Source: Candidatus Cloacimonadota bacterium (GTDB lineage Bacteria; Cloacimonadota; Cloacimonadia; Cloacimonadales; TCS61). From it: DNA of 26,949 nt. The notes under the pieces are model-generated. The model had not been told where the DNA came from and ran no database searches. It worked only from the letters and a program-made list of their open reading frames with translations. The stretch covers positions 1 through 26,949 of the forward strand of contig JAQICU010000309.1 in the NCBI GenBank assembly GCA_027858325.1. Direction: 5' to 3'. Position numbers and translations under genes: made by a program. Positions 2,424 to 16,000 of this stretch are shown piece after piece (positions within the stretch are counted from its first letter, which is position 1; each line of letters begins with the position of its first letter).

Positions 2424-2552
2424 GATTAAGAACAAAATTCATAAAATATTTGACAAAATAACTTATTATATTCTGTTGTCCTGTAAGGTGCAACAAATAA
2501 TTGCGCCTTGAGTAAGTAATTAAAATAAATTACTAGGGAAAAGGAGAGAAGT

Positions 2553-4220
2553 ATGAAAAAGAAACTATTAGTTTTTGCCTTACTACTGCTTACTATATCT
2601 GTATTTGCAGTATGGAATGTTGGTGAGCCTATCACTGACGATTATTCATGGACAGACAGTAATGGAGAATATCATTCAATCCATGAACTAACTGAAGCAG
2701 GAAAAGCAATTGTAATTTTCTGGGGAGAAAGCTGGTGACCTGGGTGTACAGCGGCGGCGCCGTTTATGGAAGCTTGGTGGAACACACAAAATCCTGATGA
2801 AGTATATTACATTGCAACTTTTGATTGGTCTGTTAATGGTGTTTATATGCCATACGCAACAGAAGTTTATGGTTATTACTCTGATTTTGGCAATGGGTAT
2901 GTCCCTTTCTTTGGAGTATTTGGAGCATATAACAATTTCATGTATGGTGATAATGATTATCTGCCAGCTCAAAACATGGTTCCTAATGCAATTGAATCAT
3001 TCAATCATATAGGTTTAGCATTCCCTGTCGCCGATAGACAGATCAATTTCTGGGGATTCGATCATATTGATATTACCAACGAGTTTGGCACTCCAACCGG
3101 GAACCCAATTTCTTCTGTATCAATAACTGGCAACAGCAATCCTAATATTGCAAATGTAGAGCTTGTTGATAATGTTATCACTGTAATTGTTGGATCTGAA
3201 CTTGGTTCTACTGAGATCACTGTAACTGGAGATGATGGAACAGATGAAACTGTGGATGATGTATTTGTAATTACTGCTTTGAATCCTAATCTATTGAGTT
3301 ACGAATATCTTCTGGAAGATAGTCCGATTCAAGGATTATCTCCCAACAATCCAAATCCTTATTCAAACTCATATATCGATCTTGGCTGGACATCAATAGA
3401 TGTTACTGAAACGGATGAAATTGCAAATGTTTATTTCTCAGTAATGTGGGAAAGTGTTGATTATGTTAGTGAAGGAAGTTTCCGTGCTACATCTCCAAAC
3501 GGAACCGATGTTTTACTTTATAATCCTTCTGGCACAGATCCTGTACAATTAGAGATCAACGCTACAGAATTTAATGGTGAAGCAATGGATGGTGAATGGA
3601 TCATTTACATGTTAGATAGCTATGGTGACGGTGGACATCAGGTTACTGATGGTGTTGTAAACTTTATGTCCGATACAGATGAAATCGGTCAAGTCGCCGG
3701 TATTGTTTCAGATGCTGATGGCAATCCAATTCCAGAAGCAGTTATTTCTGTAAGTAATATTGCTACTATGGCAGATGATCTGGGTCAATTCTCATTTGAA
3801 ATTCTTAGTGGTGATTACACATTCACCTGTGAAGCTGAGGGTTACGAAGTAACTACTATAGACGATGAAGTGATTACAGATGAACTTACTTACCTTGATT
3901 TCCAATTGACAGCAATTACAGGGACTAATGATCTTCCAGTTCTTATAACAGAACTTCAAAGCAACTACCCAAATCCATTCAATCCAGTTACAAATATTTC
4001 TTATTCAGTTAAAGAAGCTGGAGATGTTACTCTTGAAGTTTACAATATAAAAGGACAACTCGTAACCACACTTGTTAACGAGGTAAAAGAAACAGGTAAT
4101 TATACAACAATCTGGAATGGTACAGACAATTCAAACAAATCTGTATCCAGTGGTGTTTACTTCTATAAAATGAAATCCGGCAACTACACTGCAACCAAGA
4201 AAATGATCTTAATGAAATAA
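2553..4220 (+). CDS. Secreted selenoprotein (555 aa, Sec62): signal peptide + UxxC thioredoxin-like domain + Ig-like + P-domain-like + carboxypeptidase-regulatory-like + FlgD-Ig/T9SS-like CTD
   Basis: ORFs 2553-2738 and 2766-4220 are in the same frame, separated only by TGA 2736-2738; readthrough gives FWGESW-U-PGC. SD AGGAG and signal peptide are on the upstream part only. SECIS-like hairpin follows. NYPNPFNP...KKMILMK terminus. Confidence 0.88.
2745..2768 (+). promoter_or_regulatory. Bacterial SECIS-like hairpin for TGA 2736-2738
   Basis: AGCGGC-[GGC]-GCCGTT upper stem, extendable with a bulged C2749; G-first loop starts 17 nt after the TGA. GC-rich GCG GCG GCG CCG codons in an AT-rich gene. 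Confidence 0.7.
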
Positions 4221-4229
4221 GAGAATTGA

Positions 4230-4255
4230 GCCTGACCACTTGCAAGTGGTCAGGC
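4230..4255 (+). terminator. Perfect 26-bp palindrome after the selenoprotein 1 stop; possible terminator or RNA-stabilising hairpin
   Basis: GCCTGACCACTTGCAAGTGGTCAGGC, 9 nt after the stop codon; the T-run (4264-4268) is not immediately adjacent. Confidence 0.55.
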
Positions 4256-4357: not shown

Positions 4358-4436
4358 GTTATTAATTATTTGACAATTCACATCAATTTGCTTTGTTGCC
4401 TCATGTGTTGCAACAATGATTTTTCATGGAGAAAAA

Positions 4437-5246
4437 ATGAATAAGTATTTAACTGAATTAATGGAAGTCGGACTTACAGAGAATGAGGCAAAAGTATATA
4501 GTTGCCTTTTGCGAAAACATACATTCACAGCAACTGAGATTTCACAATGTTGCACCGTAAACAGATCCCGGATCTATTCCGTTCTTGCAAGTTTAATAAA
4601 TAAAGGATTGTGTATAGAAAAACTGGGGAAAGTCAGAAGATTCCAAGCTGAAACTCCGGAAATTGCTTTTGAAAAACTCATTAACGAACAAAATGAAAAA
4701 TTAAAAACCCTTAACTCTCTACCCGAGCTTCTCTCTCCAATTTATAATTCTAATACCGACAACTCTTCTCCACTCAAATTCATCGAAGTTTATGGTACAC
4801 CTTCAAGTATTATAAAAAAACATCACACACTTGAACTTGAATCTAAAAAAGTTGTGCTCTCTTTCTGCAAATCTCCTTATGCAATGTCATATGACCTTAA
4901 TATTCATGAGGAACAAGAAGAAAGCATGAAAACAGGTGTCGTATACAAATCGATCTTTGAAATAGAGAAAGATGGTATTGAACTATTTGCCAGAAGAATG
5001 AAAAATTTTGAAGATCAGGGTGAAGAGATAAAAGTGGCATATCACCTTCCAATAAAATTGCATGTGTTTGATAACCACACTGTTATGTTCTCCATGATCA
5101 ACCAGGTAAATCCTGAACAAAACCTTACATATATGGTTATTGAGCATTCAGACCTAGCTGAAACACTCATTACTACATTCTACAAATATTGGGGTGAAGC
5201 ACTCACAGTTAGAGAGTTTCTAAAGAAGGAAAATATTAAACTTTAG
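4437..5246 (+). CDS. TrmB-family transcriptional regulator
   Basis: N-terminal GLTENEAKVYSCLL...RSRIYSVLASLINKGL winged HTH; C-terminal effector domain (LPIKLHVFD). Start placed at ATG 4437 after GGAGA. Confidence 0.85.
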   Translation: MNKYLTELMEVGLTENEAKVYSCLLRKHTFTATEISQCCTVNRSRIYSVLASLINKGLCIEKLGKVRRFQAETPEIAFEKLINEQNEKLKTLNSLPELLSPIYNSNTDNSSPLKFIEVYGTPSSIIKKHHTLELESKKVVLSFCKSPYAMSYDLNIHEEQEESMKTGVVYKSIFEIEKDGIELFARRMKNFEDQGEEIKVAYHLPIKLHVFDNHTVMFSMINQVNPEQNLTYMVIEHSDLAETLITTFYKYWGEALTVREFLKKENIKL

Positions 5247-5306: not shown

Positions 5307-6911
5307 ATGAGGAAAATTTTGTGGATCACTTTTGCAATGCTGATACTATTTACTTCTCTTTTTGCACAATTACCTGACCCACAACATGTAGTTTCAGCAA
5401 AGATCGAAGAGAATCAAATAAAGGTAACATACATAATACCAAAAGGTTTTTATCAGACTTTATTAAAAGACATGTTATTCATCGATGTGGATGAAGTTCA
5501 TGGAATTACTTTCGAGCCAACTATCTATCCGGATGGTGAAAAATCCGAAGATGGTTATACTAAATATCATGGGAAGTTTTCATTAACTAAGCAGTTTACT
5601 ATTTCAGATAATTATAATGGGAATTCTTTTTTAAAAGTTTATGCTGGATATCAATTGTGTGATGAAGGCGGGACATGTTTTATGCCAGAAGAAGTTGAAT
5701 TCAGTTTAACTTTATCATCTGGCATAGAAGTAAAGGAAGAAGAAAGAACCGAAGACGCACATAAAGAAATTAAAAGCGTAGATGATATAGAAGGTCTGAT
5801 CGTTTTATTAGAAGACTTTGAGATCACTGGAAAAGAAGCTGGATATCAAAACAGTGAAGATTTCGTTACATTCCTGGAAAAAGCAAAAGAACCTGGTTCA
5901 TTAAGTACAAATAAATTTGCAAATATGAGTATCTGGCTTATTATCATCCTTATCTTACTCGGGGGAATTGCCTTAAATCTCACTCCCTGTGTCCTTCCTA
6001 TGATACCGATTACAATTGCTGTTTTAGGAGCCGGTACACAATCAGAATCAAAAGCTAAAGGATTTTTGATCGGTGGAATTTATGGTCTGGGAATGGCATT
6101 AGCTTATGGGTTGTTGGGTGTAATTGTGGTTCTCACCGGTTCTCAGTTCGGCACAATAAACTCATCTCCCTGGTTCAATATTATTATTGCCGCTATTTTT
6201 ATTGCATTAGCTTTAGCTATGTTCGATATCATTCCTATAGATTTCTCCAAATTTCAAAGTAATAAAGTCGGAAGTAAAAGCAGAAGTAAATTTATAACTG
6301 TATTTATTCTGGGAATCATTGCTGCTGTTTTGGCTGGAGCGTGTGTAGCTCCTGTTTTGATCTCAGTAATTTTGTATTCAACTTCACTATATACTGCTGG
6401 TAATCCTGCTGGATTGCTATTACCATTTTTATTAGGTGTTGGAATGGCAATTCCCTGGCCTTTTGCTGGAGCTGGTCTTTCCTTCCTTCCTAAACCTGGC
6501 AACTGGATGAAATGGGTAAAGATCATATTCGGGATTATTATCCTGATTATTGCGATATTCTATTTTTTCACAGGAATCAAAATTTTCAAGAGTAACAGAA
6601 CTGTAGAATATATTGCGGAATCGCATGAAACTTCTGAACTTCCATGGAAGCACTCTATAATTGAAGGTTTAAAATTAGCAAAAGAAGAGGATAAACCGGT
6701 TTTCATAGATTTTTGGGCAACCTGGTGTAAAAACTGTTTAGCTATGGATGCAACTACTTTCAAGGATGAAAAAGTGATAGAGGAATTCGAAAATTACATT
6801 TTGGTCAAATACAAAGCTGAAAACCTTAAAGTATCACCTACAAAAGAGATCTTAAATCACTTTGAAATAATCGGTTTGCCAACTTATATTACTTTGGTTC
6901 CGAAAAAATAG
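5307..6911 (+). CDS. dsbD: Protein-disulfide reductase DsbD
   Basis: Signal peptide, N-domain CDEGGTC, TM domain with LTPCVLP and GACVAP, C-terminal thioredoxin DFWATWCKNC. Confidence 0.92.
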   Translation: MRKILWITFAMLILFTSLFAQLPDPQHVVSAKIEENQIKVTYIIPKGFYQTLLKDMLFIDVDEVHGITFEPTIYPDGEKSEDGYTKYHGKFSLTKQFTISDNYNGNSFLKVYAGYQLCDEGGTCFMPEEVEFSLTLSSGIEVKEEERTEDAHKEIKSVDDIEGLIVLLEDFEITGKEAGYQNSEDFVTFLEKAKEPGSLSTNKFANMSIWLIIILILLGGIALNLTPCVLPMIPITIAVLGAGTQSESKAKGFLIGGIYGLGMALAYGLLGVIVVLTGSQFGTINSSPWFNIIIAAIFIALALAMFDIIPIDFSKFQSNKVGSKSRSKFITVFILGIIAAVLAGACVAPVLISVILYSTSLYTAGNPAGLLLPFLLGVGMAIPWPFAGAGLSFLPKPGNWMKWVKIIFGIIILIIAIFYFFTGIKIFKSNRTVEYIAESHETSELPWKHSIIEGLKLAKEEDKPVFIDFWATWCKNCLAMDATTFKDEKVIEEFENYILVKYKAENLKVSPTKEILNHFEIIGLPTYITLVPKK

Positions 6912-6916
6912 AAGGT

Positions 6917-8035
6917 ATGAAAATGAAGAAATTCCTGATCTTAATCAGCGTGGTTTTGATACTTTTTGCCTGTGATAGATTTGAACACAAATTTGAGCCG
7001 GAAATAAACAGTGAAAATTATATAATTGATTTTTTTAATACTTTTGCAGATTCAATTTCCACATTCCCGGAAAATATCCCTGGTATTATGTCTTTCTATA
7101 ATGATGACTATAATAATAATGGTGTCACAAAGTTGGATGTAGAAAATTTCTATATTGAACTTTCTCTTTTAACACCTGGTACTCTTGATCTTGAAGCAAT
7201 AATTATTGATACAACTGATAATTTCAATATTGAATGGAGATTGATAGCTACTGAACTCTCAACTTTTACATACTTGGATTCCATAATTACAGATGTTTTA
7301 TTGCCAACTGAAGATTCTTTCCAATTCTACGGAAACCAGGCAGACATGAGAAATGTTATTGTAGAACTTTTTACCGGACAATGGTGTCCAAACTGCCCAA
7401 ATGTTGAAGAAGCATTGCATAACCTCAGAATGCAATATGGAAGCAGATTCTCTTACGTTGAGTATCATATTGGCGATCAGCTTGCCGGTGATTTTTCAGA
7501 TATATTCAGTTATTATCCAAACAACGGAACACTGCCTTTCGGCATTGTAAACGGAAATGCACATATAGTTTATTCTGCTCAAAGTGTTGAGGAAGTTCAA
7601 GCAGAAATTGAAGCTGCAATTACACCACTTCTACAAGAACAACTTTTAGTATCTCTTTCTAACGTACAATCTAATCTTACAGATTCTCTGCTTACCGGAT
7701 CTGTCCAGATCGAGATTGATCCTTCCATTCCGACAGAAAACCTTACTTTGGTTGCTGTTTTGATGGAAGATTATAATGACGAGTATCTGAACAATCATGG
7801 AGATCCTCACTACAATATTGTGCTGAAAAGAACTACTTTCGATATTTCAGCTTTAAATTTAGATGATCCCATTGATTTTGAAATAACAGATCTGGATGTA
7901 CTTCCGCAATGGTATATGGACAATACAATCGGTTTACCCGAGGATCTTACTTTAGTGATCTGGGTTCAAACTTTAGAGATACCGTATAATCAAAATACAT
8001 GTGCTGTATATAATGTTATCGAAGTTTCTCTATAA
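6917..8035 (+). CDS. Lipoprotein with C-terminal Omp28-like thioredoxin-fold domain (CPNC)
   Basis: Lipobox LFA-C; VELFTGQWCPNCP motif resembling Omp28-family proteins. Confidence 0.75.
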   Translation: MKMKKFLILISVVLILFACDRFEHKFEPEINSENYIIDFFNTFADSISTFPENIPGIMSFYNDDYNNNGVTKLDVENFYIELSLLTPGTLDLEAIIIDTTDNFNIEWRLIATELSTFTYLDSIITDVLLPTEDSFQFYGNQADMRNVIVELFTGQWCPNCPNVEEALHNLRMQYGSRFSYVEYHIGDQLAGDFSDIFSYYPNNGTLPFGIVNGNAHIVYSAQSVEEVQAEIEAAITPLLQEQLLVSLSNVQSNLTDSLLTGSVQIEIDPSIPTENLTLVAVLMEDYNDEYLNNHGDPHYNIVLKRTTFDISALNLDDPIDFEITDLDVLPQWYMDNTIGLPEDLTLVIWVQTLEIPYNQNTCAVYNVIEVSL

Positions 8036-8056: not shown

Positions 8057-8596
8057 ATGAAAAATATTTTTATAACTATACTGATCATGATTCTGGCAAT
8101 TCAAATATTTGCTGCTGAAAAAGCCGGTGATTTTAAATTAGAAAACATTGAAGGTAAACAGGTTAAATTATCTGATTTTCAAAAAGAAGGTCTAGTAATA
8201 TTAGATTTCTGGGCGACCTGGTGTGTTCCCTGTAAAAACGGACTACCTAAAATAAATGAATTACATGAAAAATATGATAATGTTAATGTATTGACAATCA
8301 ACGTAGATAAACCTCGAAAAAAAGCCGCGGCCATTTCTACTGTCAAATCGAATCGTTTTACATTCCACACATTATTCGATTCCAAAAAAGTTGTTCAAAA
8401 ACAATATAACATTACAAATATTCCTCGCACATTGATCATAGATCAGGATGGAACAATAATTTATGATCATACAGGTTATCAGCGAGGTGATGAAAAACAT
8501 TATGAGGAAGTGATCGTTAAGTGGCTGGAAGAACAGGAGACCGGTGAACCCAAGGAAGATATATCCGAACCAGAAATCGAAGTACCGGAAGACTAA
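8057..8596 (+). CDS. TlpA-family thiol-disulfide reductase
   Basis: Signal peptide; DFKLENIEGKQVKLSDF, LDFWATWCVPC and cis-Pro NIPRT motifs. Confidence 0.9.
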   Translation: MKNIFITILIMILAIQIFAAEKAGDFKLENIEGKQVKLSDFQKEGLVILDFWATWCVPCKNGLPKINELHEKYDNVNVLTINVDKPRKKAAAISTVKSNRFTFHTLFDSKKVVQKQYNITNIPRTLIIDQDGTIIYDHTGYQRGDEKHYEEVIVKWLEEQETGEPKEDISEPEIEVPED

Positions 8597-10842: not shown

Positions 10843-12807
10843 ATGAAAAAGAGCATTTTATTACTGGTTTTATTGGTTTTGACAATGTCATTGTTTGGCG
10901 TCTATAATGTCGGTGATATAGTAGATAACTATACTTGGACAGACAATACGGGAGCGGCACATGATATTTATGAGCTAACTGCTCAAGGTGTAGCAATCGT
11001 CTTCTTCTGGGGAGGTTATTCCTGACCTAGCTGTGTTGCGGCGGCGCCGCAATTTCAAGCTTTATGGGAACAACAACAACAGTATCCGGATGGTAATGTA
11101 TATATGATTACACAAACTGACTGGGGTGCAGGACATACTCATTTCACAGGGATAGGAGCATCAGGTGCATTTGGGAATGGATATATCCCCTTGTTTGCAG
11201 TTATAGGTGCAGACAATGAATGTTATTATAATAATAATTACTTTTCCAGTGTAACATCAGCTCTGAATCTAGCAATTGAATCATTTGGACTTAATGCAAA
11301 TATGACGGCAAATGTAACAAGTGGACCTGCGAATCTAGCAGTTCAATTTCAAAGCCTTTGCACACCAGCAAATGGTATCGAAAGCTGGGAATGGGATCTG
11401 GATGGTGATGGCGAGATCGACAGTACAGAAGAAGATCCTTATTTTCTTTATACTGAACAAGGTACTTATGATGTCACCTTAACAATAACTATGGACGGAG
11501 AGACATCTACACTCACAAATGAAGATTATATCACGGTTACCGACGGCTCGAATATCTCGGGATCTCTTTCCGGTAACTGGATTGCCGGTAATACATACAC
11601 TATAACTGGTGAGGTTGATATACCTGAAGGTAATGAACTAATAATTACTGAGGGAACTGAGATCAATATAGAAAATGACACTCAGTTGTTAGTAAATGGG
11701 CTTCTGGCAGCAGATGCATCATCTTCACGAGGAGAACCTATTATTTTCAAATCAGAATCTTCCTGGAGCGGTATAAGATTCTTTAATACTCAAGAAGATA
11801 ATATTCTTGCTAACTGTGAGATCTCCAATGCTAGTGTTTCCGCTATTTTGGTAGAAGGTGATTCAAAAGTTGATGTTATCGGATGTAAAATATTTGATAA
11901 TACGAGTACTTCACTTGGAGCAGCATTTGAAGTTATTGGATCTGATAATGTTCTGATCTCTCAAAACATAATTGCTAATAATTACAGTACAAATTCTGTA
12001 GGTGGTATCAAATGCATCAATTCAGCAATAGAGATCACTAATAATCTGATAGTTAACAATTCAGGATCATACAGTGCTATTATTCTTCAAAACGGTTCTG
12101 ATGTAGAGTTTACGAACAATACAATTGCCAACAATGAAGCAAATGGTGTAAACGCTTATACATTCTTTATCTTAAGCTCAGATCCTGTCATCAAGAATTG
12201 CATTATCAACGATAGCAATCCGATTTTCTTTGCTTCCGGTACTATAGATGTAACATATACCTGTATAAGTGGTGGATATGAGGGCACAGGCAACATCGAT
12301 GAAGATCCTCTCTTTGCTGCACCAACAGCCGGAGACGGAACAGGATATGATGGACTTGCTGCTGATTGGAGCTTACAAGCTGGTTCACTTTGTATAAATG
12401 CCGGTGATCCTGATGCAATGTACAACGATACAGATGGAACAAGAAACGATATGGGTGCTTATGGAGGACCAACACCGTACGAATTGGAACCAACAGATTC
12501 AGATGATAACACAGTTAATGTAGCTGCTATCAACTCAATCTCTGTTTACCCAAATCCATTCAACCCGACAGCTAACATTGCACTTTCCATTAATGAGAAT
12601 GATATTCAGCAGCCTGTATCTGTAGAGATCTTCAACATAAAAGGGCAATTAGTTAAAACAATTGTGAATAATGAGATTGTCCAAAATACAAACTTTGTGT
12701 GGAACGGAAAAGACAACAGTGGTAACTCAACTTCCAGCGGAATGTATTTTGTGAAGCTGAAAACAGCTACTTCTGAAGTTTCTAAAAAGATGCTGTTGAT
12801 TAAATAG
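10843..12807 (+). CDS. Secreted selenoprotein (654 aa, Sec61): signal peptide + UxxC thioredoxin-like domain + PKD + parallel beta-helix + FlgD-Ig/T9SS-like CTD
   Basis: ORFs 10843-11025 and 11104-12807 are in frame, separated only by TGA 11023-11025; readthrough gives FWGGYS-U-PSC. The N-terminus is paralogous to 2553-2738 and a SECIS-like hairpin follows. Confidence 0.88.
11035..11053 (+). promoter_or_regulatory. Bacterial SECIS-like hairpin for TGA 11023-11025
   Basis: TTGCGGC-[GGC]-GCCGCAA perfect 7-bp stem; loop starts 17 nt after the TGA; compensatory base change relative to the 2745-2768 hairpin. Confidence 0.75.
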
Positions 12808-12943: not shown

Positions 12944-15900
12944 ATGTTAATAATAAAAAAACTGATTCTTGTTTTGATCTTCACAATGATGCTAACCGGA
13001 CTTTTTGGTGCTTATCTCATAGATCAACCACAGATTCTCACTCAACCTGATGGGAAAATACTGCATTGTTTTGCCTCTGGAGATGAATTCCACAACTGGC
13101 TGCATGATGAAAACGGATATACAATAATTCAAGATCCTGACACGGGATATTTTGTGTATGCTGACCTGATAGGTGAGAAACTGGTTTCTACCAGCTATAC
13201 TGCAGGTCAAATAGATCCGGCAACTACAAGTTTAAAACCAGGGTTGAATGCAAAACCTGAAGGATTTGAACAAAGAGTTGAAGAGTTCAATCAAATACTG
13301 GCAGATAGAAGAAGCAGAGTTTCCACGATCGGTGATCTGAACAATCTTGTTGTATTTATCCGTTTTTCCGATCAAACAGAATTCACTGAAACTTTAACAC
13401 AATATAATAACTTGTTCAATGCTGTTGATGAAAGCTCGATGTATCAATATTTTGACGAAGTATCGAATGAACAACTCGATATAACTTCCCATTTCTATCC
13501 CGAACCAAACGGCAATCTTATCATTTCGTATCAAAGTCCAAATCCTCGTAATTATTACGAAGTTTATAATGCTGTGACTAATCCGAACGGTTACCAAACT
13601 GATCAACAACGTACTCAAAGGGAACATGCACTTTTACAAGCTGCAATCCAATTTGTAGAAGCTCAAATACCTCCAACTCTGGATCTGGATAATGATGATG
13701 ATGGCTTAGTGGACAATGTTTGTTTCATCATCAAGGGTAGTACTGGAGCATGGGCAGACCTGCTTTGGCCCCACATGTGGGTTTTATATTCACTTGATGT
13801 TTACATTCATGGTGTGCAGGTGTGGACTTATAATTTCCAATTGTCTCAAAGTTTAAACAGCAGCGGAGTAGGAGTTTTATGTCATGAGATGTTCCACTCT
13901 CTGGGCGCACCCGATCTTTATCATTATACAAACAATGGCATCTCTCCCACCGGTAGTTGGGATTTGATGTGCGCAAATACAAATCCACCCCAGCACATGA
14001 CCACCTGGATGAAATATAAATATGGGCTCTGGTTCGATGAAGTTCCTGAAATAAACACTACTGGAACTTATACATTGGAACCGGTCGTTGATTCCCCTTA
14101 TAGTTGTTACAAAATTCCTTCTCCAAATTCTAGTACAGAATTCTTTATGGTGGAATACCGTCGCAGAACCGGGTTATTTGAACCTAGCATCCCTGGAGAC
14201 GGCTTGATCATATATAGGATAGACCCGACCCTGAATGGGAATGCTTCCGGTCCTCCGGATGAAGTTTATCTCTTCCGTCCCGATGGAACCATGACCAACA
14301 ACGGTAACGTTAATCAAGCACATTTTTCGGCTGATGTTGGCAGAACTGAATTTAATGACAACACAAATCCTGCCGGATTCCTGCAATATGGTGCACCAGG
14401 CGGGATCTTTATTTCCGAAATTGGTTTTGTAGGTGATACAATCGAATTTACCTTAAATGCAGGACTCGTCCCAATGTTTGAAACCAATGTGCAAACTGGA
14501 CCTGCCTACCTGGGAGTACAATTCACTAACACTTCATTTCCTGTTACAGGTATTGATAGCTGGGAATGGGATTTTGATGGAGATGGCATTTTTGACAGCA
14601 CAGAAGAGAATCCGTTCCATCTCTATACTGAACCTGGTGTGTATGATGTAACTCTTAAGATCGAAGTTGATGGAGAATTCGCTGAGATCACTGTTGAAGA
14701 TTATATCACAGTTACAGATGGTTCTTCAGTTAGTGGAAATCTTTCAGGAGTATGGGTACCTGATTTCAGCCCATATATGATTTCCGAAGATATTGTTATT
14801 GCAGAAGGTGATGAACTAATAATTACTGAGGGAGTTGAGATTATTTTTGCCGGAAATGTACAATTTACTGTGAATGGACTTCTGGCAGCAGATGCTTCTT
14901 CGACAAGAGGAGAACCTATTATTTTCAAATCAGAATCTTCCTGGAACGGTATAAGATTCTTTGTTACTCAAGAAGATAATATTATTGCTAACTGCGAGAT
15001 TTCCGATGCAAGTGTTTCGGCTATCAAGATTGAAGGTGATTCAAAAGTTGATGTTATCGGCTGTAAGATATTTGATAATAATAGTACTTCACTTGCTGCA
15101 GCATTTGAGATTATAGGATCTGATAATGTTCTGATCTCACAAAACATTATTGCCAATAACATAAGCACAAGCAACGCTGGAAGTATTGGCTGCAATGCCT
15201 CTTCTCCTGGAATCACAAATAATATTATTGTGAATAACACTGGACAATGGGGTGCATTTTACTTATCGAATGATTCTAATCCAATCATGACTAATAATAC
15301 AATTGCGAATAATGAATCAACTAAAGAAATTGCCGGTACTCAAACTCCATACCTGTTCTTCCTTTTGAATTCAATTCCAATTATTACTAATTCGATCATC
15401 ATTGATAATGGTGAAATCCATTTTCCGCTGAGTACACCTGAAATTACCTATAGTTGCGTAACAGGTGGATTTACAGGTGAAGGAAATATTGATGAAGATC
15501 CGCTTTTTGTTGCACCAACAGCCGGAGACGGAACAGGATATGGCGGGCTTGCTGCTGATTGGAGCTTACAAGCTGGTTCACTTTGTATAAATGCTGGTGA
15601 TCCTGCTACTATGTACAACAATATAGATGGAACAAGAAACGATATGGGCGCTTATGGTGGTCCAACTCCTTTCGAAATGGAACCAACAGATTCTGATGAT
15701 AACACAGTTAATGTAGCTGCTATCAATTCAATCTCTGTATATCCTAATCCGTTCAATCCAACTGCCAATATAGCTCTTTCAATTAACGATAATGATATCC
15801 AGCAGCCTGTATCAGTTAAGATCTTCAACATTAAAGGTCAGCTTGTAAAAACAATTGTGAATAATGAAGTCGTCCAAAATACAAACTTTGTCTGGAATGG

Positions 15901-16000
15901 AAAAGACAATAAGGGCAATTCTACCGCAAGCGGAATGTATTTTGTGAAGCTAAAAACAGCTACTTCTGAAGTTTCTAAAAAGATGCTGTTGATTAAATAA
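12944..16000 (+). CDS. Secreted M6-family (immune inhibitor A-like) zinc metalloprotease + PKD + beta-helix + FlgD-Ig/T9SS-like CTD
   Basis: Signal peptide, propeptide-like QPDG...GDEFHNW region, GVLCHEMFHSLGAPDLY (HExxH), WDLM, EFFMVEYR motifs; C-terminal half paralogous to 11311-12807. Confidence 0.88.
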   Translation: MLIIKKLILVLIFTMMLTGLFGAYLIDQPQILTQPDGKILHCFASGDEFHNWLHDENGYTIIQDPDTGYFVYADLIGEKLVSTSYTAGQIDPATTSLKPGLNAKPEGFEQRVEEFNQILADRRSRVSTIGDLNNLVVFIRFSDQTEFTETLTQYNNLFNAVDESSMYQYFDEVSNEQLDITSHFYPEPNGNLIISYQSPNPRNYYEVYNAVTNPNGYQTDQQRTQREHALLQAAIQFVEAQIPPTLDLDNDDDGLVDNVCFIIKGSTGAWADLLWPHMWVLYSLDVYIHGVQVWTYNFQLSQSLNSSGVGVLCHEMFHSLGAPDLYHYTNNGISPTGSWDLMCANTNPPQHMTTWMKYKYGLWFDEVPEINTTGTYTLEPVVDSPYSCYKIPSPNSSTEFFMVEYRRRTGLFEPSIPGDGLIIYRIDPTLNGNASGPPDEVYLFRPDGTMTNNGNVNQAHFSADVGRTEFNDNTNPAGFLQYGAPGGIFISEIGFVGDTIEFTLNAGLVPMFETNVQTGPAYLGVQFTNTSFPVTGIDSWEWDFDGDGIFDSTEENPFHLYTEPGVYDVTLKIEVDGEFAEITVEDYITVTDGSSVSGNLSGVWVPDFSPYMISEDIVIAEGDELIITEGVEIIFAGNVQFTVNGLLAADASSTRGEPIIFKSESSWNGIRFFVTQEDNIIANCEISDASVSAIKIEGDSKVDVIGCKIFDNNSTSLAAAFEIIGSDNVLISQNIIANNISTSNAGSIGCNASSPGITNNIIVNNTGQWGAFYLSNDSNPIMTNNTIANNESTKEIAGTQTPYLFFLLNSIPIITNSIIIDNGEIHFPLSTPEITYSCVTGGFTGEGNIDEDPLFVAPTAGDGTGYGGLAADWSLQAGSLCINAGDPATMYNNIDGTRNDMGAYGGPTPFEMEPTDSDDNTVNVAAINSISVYPNPFNPTANIALSINDNDIQQPVSVKIFNIKGQLVKTIVNNEVVQNTNFVWNGKDNKGNSTASGMYFVKLKTATSEVSKKMLLIK

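Follow-up and report, generated by a model that had tools for sequence, protein, structure and literature searches.

The window analysed here, a stretch of 26,949 nucleotides (nt) from a Candidatus Cloacimonadota bacterium (contig JAQICU010000309.1), carries at positions 2553–4220 what we hold, with high confidence, to be one genuine selenoprotein gene, in which an in-frame UGA is decoded as selenocysteine (Sec) by the ordinary bacterial route. Taking all of the evidence together, a single Sec-decoded gene for a thioredoxin-fold selenoprotein, likely exported by the type IX secretion system (T9SS), is very probably the correct explanation of this locus. The protein family is unannotated and new as a T9SS-cargo selenoprotein; its Sec decoding mechanism is conventional.

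Gene structure and reading frame

From ATG 2553 to TAA 4218–4220, the gene forms one frame of 555 codons, in which, upon translation with TGA as U, TGA 2736–2738 is the sole internal stop. Gene callers split this frame into two same-frame open reading frames (ORFs), 2553..2738 (61 aa) and 2766..4220 (484 aa). A preliminary description of this DNA, made from the letters alone, had proposed that readthrough of the TGA joins the two ORFs to give the junction FWGESW-U-PGC, and had compared this junction with FWATWCVPC of a TlpA in the same window. The join is borne out by the shared frame and the lack of any other stop between the ORFs, translation gives exactly that junction, and the TlpA gene lies at 8057–8596.

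Were the TGA a true stop, the locus would encode a 61-residue secreted peptide and a separate 484-residue protein starting at ATG 2766. This is how callers annotate it, both here and in every public relative (482–487 aa or 456 aa, with a separate 61-aa ORF), and TGA does end two of the 22 long ORFs in the window. We nevertheless consider a true stop very unlikely. Upon inspection of the sequence, no ribosome-binding site comparable to the AAGGAGA upstream of ATG 2553 precedes ATG 2766, and a protein with a T9SS sorting domain, if made without a signal peptide, could not reach the periplasm. The start methionine of the 484-aa ORF (position 72) is not conserved, with one clade carrying PILYNWW and being annotated by callers from M99 as a 456-aa protein, whereas the amino-acid sequence is conserved across both the TGA and the inter-ORF gap. 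Uninterrupted homologues with Cys in place of the TGA also exist, as set out below.

Conservation of the TGA and cysteine counterparts

A tblastn search with the first 165 residues against the fetched loci gave 21 distinct sequences, two of them in the window (the gene itself and a paralogue, selenoprotein 2) and the other 19 from Cloacimonadota-type genome bins and metagenome contigs. The aligned codon is TGA in all 21, and amino-acid conservation is continuous across it. Over the 41 codons 5′ of the TGA, the ratio of nonsynonymous to synonymous substitution rates (dN/dS) is 0.015–0.17, with dS saturated; the 61-aa ORF is therefore the conserved N-terminus of a protein. Downstream of the TGA, dS is lower than upstream, which is expected if RNA structure adds constraint.

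Across the phylum, a profile search of 201 species-level Cloacimonadota genomes located the head domain, the N-terminal module that holds the TGA, in 47 genomes (55 matches). Exactly one in-frame TGA is present in 51 of the 55 matches, spread over 45 genomes, and the read-through frames run from ~230 to ~1070 residues. The genome under study was assembled from a metagenome and is fragmented (392 contigs, 83% complete), which lends some room to a pseudogene or to an assembly or sequencing error as the origin of the TGA. The recurrence of the same TGA in 21 independent sequences, in 45 genomes and in a 46%-identical paralogue within the window, together with strong purifying selection on both sides of it, leaves this explanation with a close to negligible probability.

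Homologues with Cys at residue 62, which the preliminary description had named as a check on its proposal, were found. One of them, P0042, is an uninterrupted protein of 523 residues with the same architecture (AhpC-TSA and a T9SS tail), in which FWGEDWCGGC aligns with FWGESWUPGC. When 1.84 billion representative proteins were searched exhaustively with phmmer, the matches fell into two kinds, fragments (60–61-aa heads, and tails aligned from query residue 72 or 99 onwards) and full domains. At the TGA column, nearly all of the full domains have WCxxC, the count of uninterrupted homologues with this motif being ~35, and one has Ser; Trp at this column was found in none of the full-domain phmmer homologues. 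The preliminary description would have been contradicted by Trp or another non-Cys residue at position 62, or by the two parts occurring as independent genes; what we observed is Cys in nearly all uninterrupted homologues, and parts that in every case adjoin each other in the same frame, with conservation running through the TGA. Of the columns in an alignment of 29 sequences, only C/U62 and P118 are invariant.

A hairpin of the bacterial SECIS type

A further line of evidence is a hairpin of the bacterial selenocysteine insertion sequence (bSECIS) type, for which the preliminary description had suggested a prediction and which proved to be conserved with covariation. Its 6-bp GC-rich stem begins 11 nt after the UGA, and RNAalifold, run on the 21 aligned sequences, finds this stem and its GGC loop unaided. 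Compensatory double changes occur at four of the six stem pairs, among them a change from C-G to A-U that the most distant members show at two of the core pairs. None of 500 column shuffles matched the observed pairing percentage or covariation score (8-pair version), and all slid registers scored lower.

All TGA forms have GCGGCGGCGCCG 13–24 nt after the TGA, encoding Ala-Ala-Ala-Pro. The hairpin core is built of GCG-GCG-GCG-CCG; the window has a GC content of 36%, and GCG accounts for 22 of the 480 Ala codons (4.6%) in its long ORFs. In two Cys forms (L122 and L123), Ala-Ala-Pro is encoded by GCT, GCA and GCC codons, and there is no hairpin at this place. The core motif has three copies in the 2.29-Mb genome, two of which are those of the two TGA genes, at identical offset. 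The third copy (C361) was rejected as a chance match in a carboxyltransferase gene, in a different frame and without a TGA.

The minimal upper stem-loop of the Escherichia coli fdhF SECIS has a GGUC loop, with G residues at its start. The hairpin described here resembles it in being small, in lying ~11 nt after the UGA and in having G residues open the apical loop, but differs in its loop (GGC rather than GGUC), in the lack of an evident bulged U and in its shorter, GC-rich stem. The consensus bSECIS model comprises a loop of 3–9 nt, a stem of 4–16 bp, a UGA-to-loop distance of 16–37 nt, a G within the loop's first two positions and a minimum free energy of −7.5 kcal/mol or lower (PMC13188914). 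Our hairpin agrees with the model in its 3-nt GGC loop, its 6-bp stem, the G within those loop positions and its spacing of 17 nt, with its energy discussed further below.

As a positive control, we turned to the SelD gene of the same genome (G000:C290:1477-2403, L110), which has one in-frame TGA, at 1507; 13 nt further on comes a 7-bp stem whose GGC loop occupies +21 to +23. The selenoprotein gene has a GGC loop at these same positions and shares the spacing with this SelD hairpin, which is the closest match found for its own. GrdA, sought as a second positive control, was not found. The SelD-type arrangement (UGA, 11 nt, then a stem of 6–8 bp whose GGC loop spans +21 to +23) offers a simple, lineage-specific rule by which further Sec genes might be recognised in the phylum.

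Selenocysteine machinery and its genomic link to the family

The genome encodes the complete set of Sec components, with a tRNA-Sec (60 bits; ARAGORN call SeC, anticodon tca), an adjoining SelB, SelA and the Sec-containing SelD. Within the phylum sample, SelA is present in 43 of the 45 genomes with a TGA form; in one large family of the phylum, SelA occurs in 0 of 88 genomes and the TGA form is absent too. Relatedness inflates any statistic drawn from this pattern, which is nonetheless consistent. In a sister family, a gene of the selenoprotein 2 type (~640–645 aa, one TGA) lies directly upstream of selA-selB. This arrangement was located in nine genomes by coordinates, with one inspected (L121 3073-8001, G056:C22; by coordinates, G101, G103, G054, G063, G185, G200, G041 and G082). 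The selA-selB adjacency is a conserved genomic link between a cargo protein of this type and the Sec machinery.

These results also bear on whether the TGA might be read as something other than Sec, either through a reassigned code (Trp or Gly) or by near-cognate read-through. The frame is indeed open under codes 4 and 25, and few long ORFs of the window stop at TGA (2 of 22). The other long ORFs of the window are, however, intact under code 11, and over the 21 sequences the in-frame TGA is confined to a single position, that of the catalytic Cys, where homologues have Cys rather than Trp or Gly. With the full Sec machinery present, and a hairpin that matches that of SelD in loop and spacing, we give a non-Sec reading very little credence.

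The thioredoxin-fold head

By inspection, the N-terminus of the Sec-decoded protein resembles a Sec-type signal peptide, with n-, h- and c-regions that the eye readily picks out (KKK, a hydrophobic core and VFA followed by VW), a pattern kept in all orthologues and modelled as a helix. The AlphaFold2 (AF2) model of residues 1–170, built from the 29-sequence alignment, has a mean predicted local distance difference test (pLDDT) score of 88 and consists of this putative signal-peptide helix followed by a beta-hairpin and a thioredoxin fold, with U62 placed at the N-terminus of helix 63–76. The thioredoxin fold that structure prediction was expected to reveal was thus recovered, and the cis-Pro-like GYVPFF that had been picked out downstream of the junction is supported by a Pro118 that is invariant over the 29 aligned homologues. 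The best Foldseek matches of the head are extracytoplasmic thiol-disulfide oxidoreductases, with at the top the Bacillus structure 4nmu, 2ls5, 3kcm, ResA and CcmG, with a probability of 1.00 and TM-scores of 0.5–0.64. The best matches also include the pneumococcal Etrx2 and DipZ-C, with Bcp and AhpE also among the structural neighbours.

Proteins of the ResA, CcmG, TlpA and Etrx class depend on an electron donor of the DsbD/CcdA type, and the pneumococcal Etrx proteins are surface-exposed. The head shares with the Cys enzymes ResA, CcmG/DsbE, TlpA and pneumococcal Etrx its fold, the N-terminal beta-hairpin, an active site at the N-terminal end of helix 1 and the cis-Pro loop. It differs from them in its low identity (12–17%), in having Sec for Cys and in being joined within one chain to beta-sandwich spacers and a sorting domain of the T9SS.

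The protein tail and its probable export

The tail is all-beta: after an Ig-like domain come a sandwich with weak likeness to a P-domain, CarboxypepD_reg and the type A sorting domain of the T9SS (Table 1). The preliminary description had named P-domain-like, carboxypeptidase-regulatory-like and C-terminal domain (CTD) modules. The latter two stand, scoring above cut-off, whereas the P-domain is weak in this protein, where P_proprotein (PF01483) reaches 14.1 bits against a cut-off of 21 (E 0.052); the same model matches 5 of 28 family members, at best with 2.1e-6. The sorting domain is recognised by both PF18962 (3.3e-10, 40.5 bits against a cut-off of 27) and TIGR04183 (7e-11, 42 bits against 23), and is carried by at least 50 proteins of the genome, which also has PorU-like genes. 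Foldseek with the full-length model, in which the head is poorly modelled (shallow alignment), returned only generic Ig-like and beta-sandwich chains.

The Sec head was found on many other tails (fn3, PKD, beta-helix, choice-of-anchor J and others), in frames of ~230 to >1000 residues. Such varied tails suggest that a single catalytic module has been shuffled as a domain among T9SS cargo proteins.

Proposed function

With moderate confidence, we take the product to be an exported TlpA-like selenol/thiol-disulfide oxidoreductase delivered by the T9SS; its signal-peptide cleavage, T9SS export, substrate, redox direction and recycling route are what we infer for such a protein. In the proposed mechanism, the hairpin 11 nt after the UGA would recruit SelB carrying Sec-tRNA(Sec), so that UGA 2736–2738 would be decoded as Sec. 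The resulting protein comprises a predicted signal peptide, a head with W-U62-P-G-C65 and the P118 cis-Pro loop, three beta-sandwich spacers and the T9SS sorting domain. It would be exported by the Sec translocon, fold in the periplasm and be transferred by the type IX route to the cell surface or the medium, with the selenol head lying distal to the anchor. Its chemistry is likely to be that known from extracytoplasmic thiol-disulfide reductases: the U62 selenolate would attack a substrate disulfide, and C65 would resolve the intermediate to an intramolecular selenenylsulfide. The protein might be reduced again by the DsbD encoded nearby before it leaves the periplasm, or by reductants in its surroundings afterwards.

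Several results weigh against this account and are gathered here. The head scores below the family cut-offs for Pfam AhpC-TSA (19.2 bits against 26) and Redoxin (17.1 against 26.6), and reaches only ~19 bits with the NCBIfam ResA model (cut-off 170) and ~19 bits with StoA; it is therefore a divergent relative that is not filed in AhpC-TSA, Redoxin or ResA by sequence. No curated NCBIfam selenoprotein model matches the protein. At the RNA level, the hairpin alone has −6.9 kcal/mol against the −7.5 of the consensus model, a value it attains only with a lower stem included (−13.0 over 60 nt), and the SelD hairpin is similarly weak (−6.4 kcal/mol). The 81 nt after the UGA (2730–2810) fold less well than shuffled sequences (z = +1.49), and a scan of 2500–3000 at E up to 10 gave no Rfam family match, only noise; the small hairpin stands out only in cross-sequence comparison. 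With regard to export, the PorU-like genes score 343 and 222+91 bits, under the 420-bit family cut-off. As to function, a surface-located reductase would lack an obvious electron donor, and the DsbD synteny is limited to the closest clade, the GYG-U-GGC clade adjoining an ABC (ATP-binding cassette) transporter instead.

A rival reading is a genuine selenoprotein with another chemistry, which might be a peroxidase like the peroxiredoxins or glutathione peroxidases, a protein that binds or carries metal, selenium or polysulfide, or a single-use periplasmic checkpoint on how its own tail folds or is exported. The best Pfam match of the head is AhpC-TSA, Bcp and AhpE are among its structural neighbours, no recycling partner is obvious at the surface, and the same head sits on unrelated tails, as expected of a cargo-handling module. 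The peroxiredoxin signature PxxxTxxC(U) is, however, absent, with V-I-F-W-G-E-S-W preceding U62 and neither Pro at −7 nor Thr/Ser at −3. The W-[C/U]-x-x-C motif, combined with an invariant cis-Pro, the TlpA/ResA/CcmG type of the closest structural neighbours and the presence of DsbD and TlpA genes nearby all favour the oxidoreductase instead, and we regard a different chemistry as unlikely.

Beyond an exported TlpA-like oxidoreductase, we tentatively raise a broader possibility, itself rather less probable than not, that Cloacimonadota display a surface Sec 'warhead', that is, a modular Sec-thioredoxin head on interchangeable T9SS stalks that performs extracellular chemistry without a cytoplasmic electron supply. 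The stalks would be P-domain/CarboxypepD_reg, PKD/beta-helix and others, and the chemistry would act on disulfide, polysulfide or selenium. If this were true, the warhead may open disulfide-rich protein substrates for co-encoded surface proteases, and the proteins would form a surface-anchored family of bacterial selenoenzymes that is, in one lineage, genetically linked to selA-selB.

Relation to known selenoproteins

The preliminary description had remarked that a large multidomain exported selenoprotein is unusual among bacterial families. This holds in part, in that the family and its T9SS-cargo architecture are new, but exported bacterial selenoproteins are already known, as are UxxC selenoproteins. 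Indeed, UxxC thioredoxin-fold selenoproteins of the TlpA-like and peroxiredoxin-like classes are established families (PMC13188914). The protein resembles these in having Sec for the first Cys of CxxC, Cys homologues, an in-coding SECIS just downstream and a probable extracytoplasmic redox role. Unlike them, it has a head that falls under Pfam thresholds and no curated selenoprotein model of its own, and this head is the N-terminal module of a 555-residue T9SS cargo rather than a small periplasmic or lipoprotein enzyme. The TlpA/ResA-class selenoprotein of model NF041054 belongs to the same class and differs in its motif (WAxxUGC, against W-U-[PG]-[GS]-C here); P0001 gave no match to this model, and the ordinary TlpA of the window scores 55 bits against its cut-off of 300.

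Our literature search found no paper on T9SS-cargo selenoproteins and nothing relevant on selenoproteins of Cloacimonas or Cloacimonadota. The NCBI name for the fragments is 'T9SS type A sorting domain-containing protein'. The gene is truncated everywhere in public databases, and the family therefore lacks its signal peptide and catalytic domain there, which affects about a fifth of the sampled Cloacimonadota genomes. With the gene correctly annotated, the bacterial selenoproteome gains a selenoprotein family, and there are signs of selenium-dependent extracellular redox chemistry in organisms that abound in anaerobic digesters and anoxic waters. Close relatives in the collections searched come from Cloacimonadota-type genomes. 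Two contigs with close orthologues (L017 and L028) are deposited under Armatimonadota bins and are probably mis-binned.

Neighbouring genes and the paralogous selenoprotein

Table 1. Features of the selenoprotein gene and its surroundings, in window coordinates.
Feature	Position	Strand	Basis and remarks
Shine-Dalgarno-like AAGGAGA, 6 nt 5′ of ATG 2553	2541..2547	+	read from sequence
Complete selenoprotein gene	2553..4220	+	TGA=U translation gives U62; frame and TGA kept in orthologues
Predicted Sec-type signal peptide, residues 1–19, probable cleavage after VFA	2553..2609	+	inspection of translation
TlpA/ResA-like thioredoxin-fold head, residues ~20–150	2610..3002	+	AF2, Foldseek
Sec codon UGA (U62), first position of U-P-G-C	2736..2738	+	TGA conservation; Cys in uninterrupted homologues
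Resolving Cys65 of the UxxC motif	2745..2747	+	column nearly invariant in the 29-sequence alignment (A1)
bSECIS hairpin	2750..2764	+	stem 2750–2755/2759–2764, loop GGC 2756–2758; RNAalifold, covariation
Pro118, cis-Pro position (GYVPFF)	2904..2906	+	invariant in the 29-sequence A1; just before strand 120–123 in AF2
Ig-like beta-sandwich, residues 185–239	3105..3269	+	Pfam T2SS-T3SS_pil_N 1.5e-5, in 22/28 family members; all-beta in AF2
P-domain-like beta-sandwich, residues ~247–374	3291..3674	+	weak P_proprotein score; AF2 pLDDT 80–93
CarboxypepD_reg (transthyretin-like), residues 380–453	3690..3911	+	Pfam 2.9e-10, above cut-off; Foldseek 2nsm, root-mean-square deviation 1.4 over 79 columns
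T9SS type A C-terminal sorting domain, residues 472–555	3966..4217	+	PF18962, TIGR04183
Intrinsic-terminator-like hairpin 3′ of the selenoprotein gene	4230..4255	+	11-bp stem, 7 bp GC
TrmB-family regulator	4416..5246	+	Pfam TrmB 2.4e-15; follows the gene in L009, L013, L014, L015, L093, L107
DsbD (DsbD_N + DsbD_TM + thioredoxin domain), candidate electron donor	5307..6911	+	Pfam; synteny in L009, L013
Paralogous selenoprotein 2	10843..12807	+	same head, TGA 11023–11025, PKD + beta-helix + CTD tail (Pfam)

The DsbD encoded downstream may be functionally linked to the selenoprotein. It is followed by genes for an Omp28-like protein, TlpA, a DUF6029 barrel and a small CTD protein, and then by the paralogous selenoprotein. 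The Omp28-like protein, a product of 372 aa encoded between DsbD and TlpA (6917–8035), has a weak match to the Omp28 lipoprotein (7e-10) and scores 3e-4 with the 'Omp28-related selenoprotein' model, far under its cut-off.

The head of selenoprotein 2 is 46% identical to that of the first, with the stop aligned (tblastn) in the context FWGGYS-U-PSC, and its hairpin (11035–11053, 8 bp, −11 kcal/mol) is stronger. Directly downstream of selenoprotein 2, at 12944–16000, lies a gene for an M6-like peptidase that carries a PKD, beta-helix and CTD tail of the same type (Pfam).

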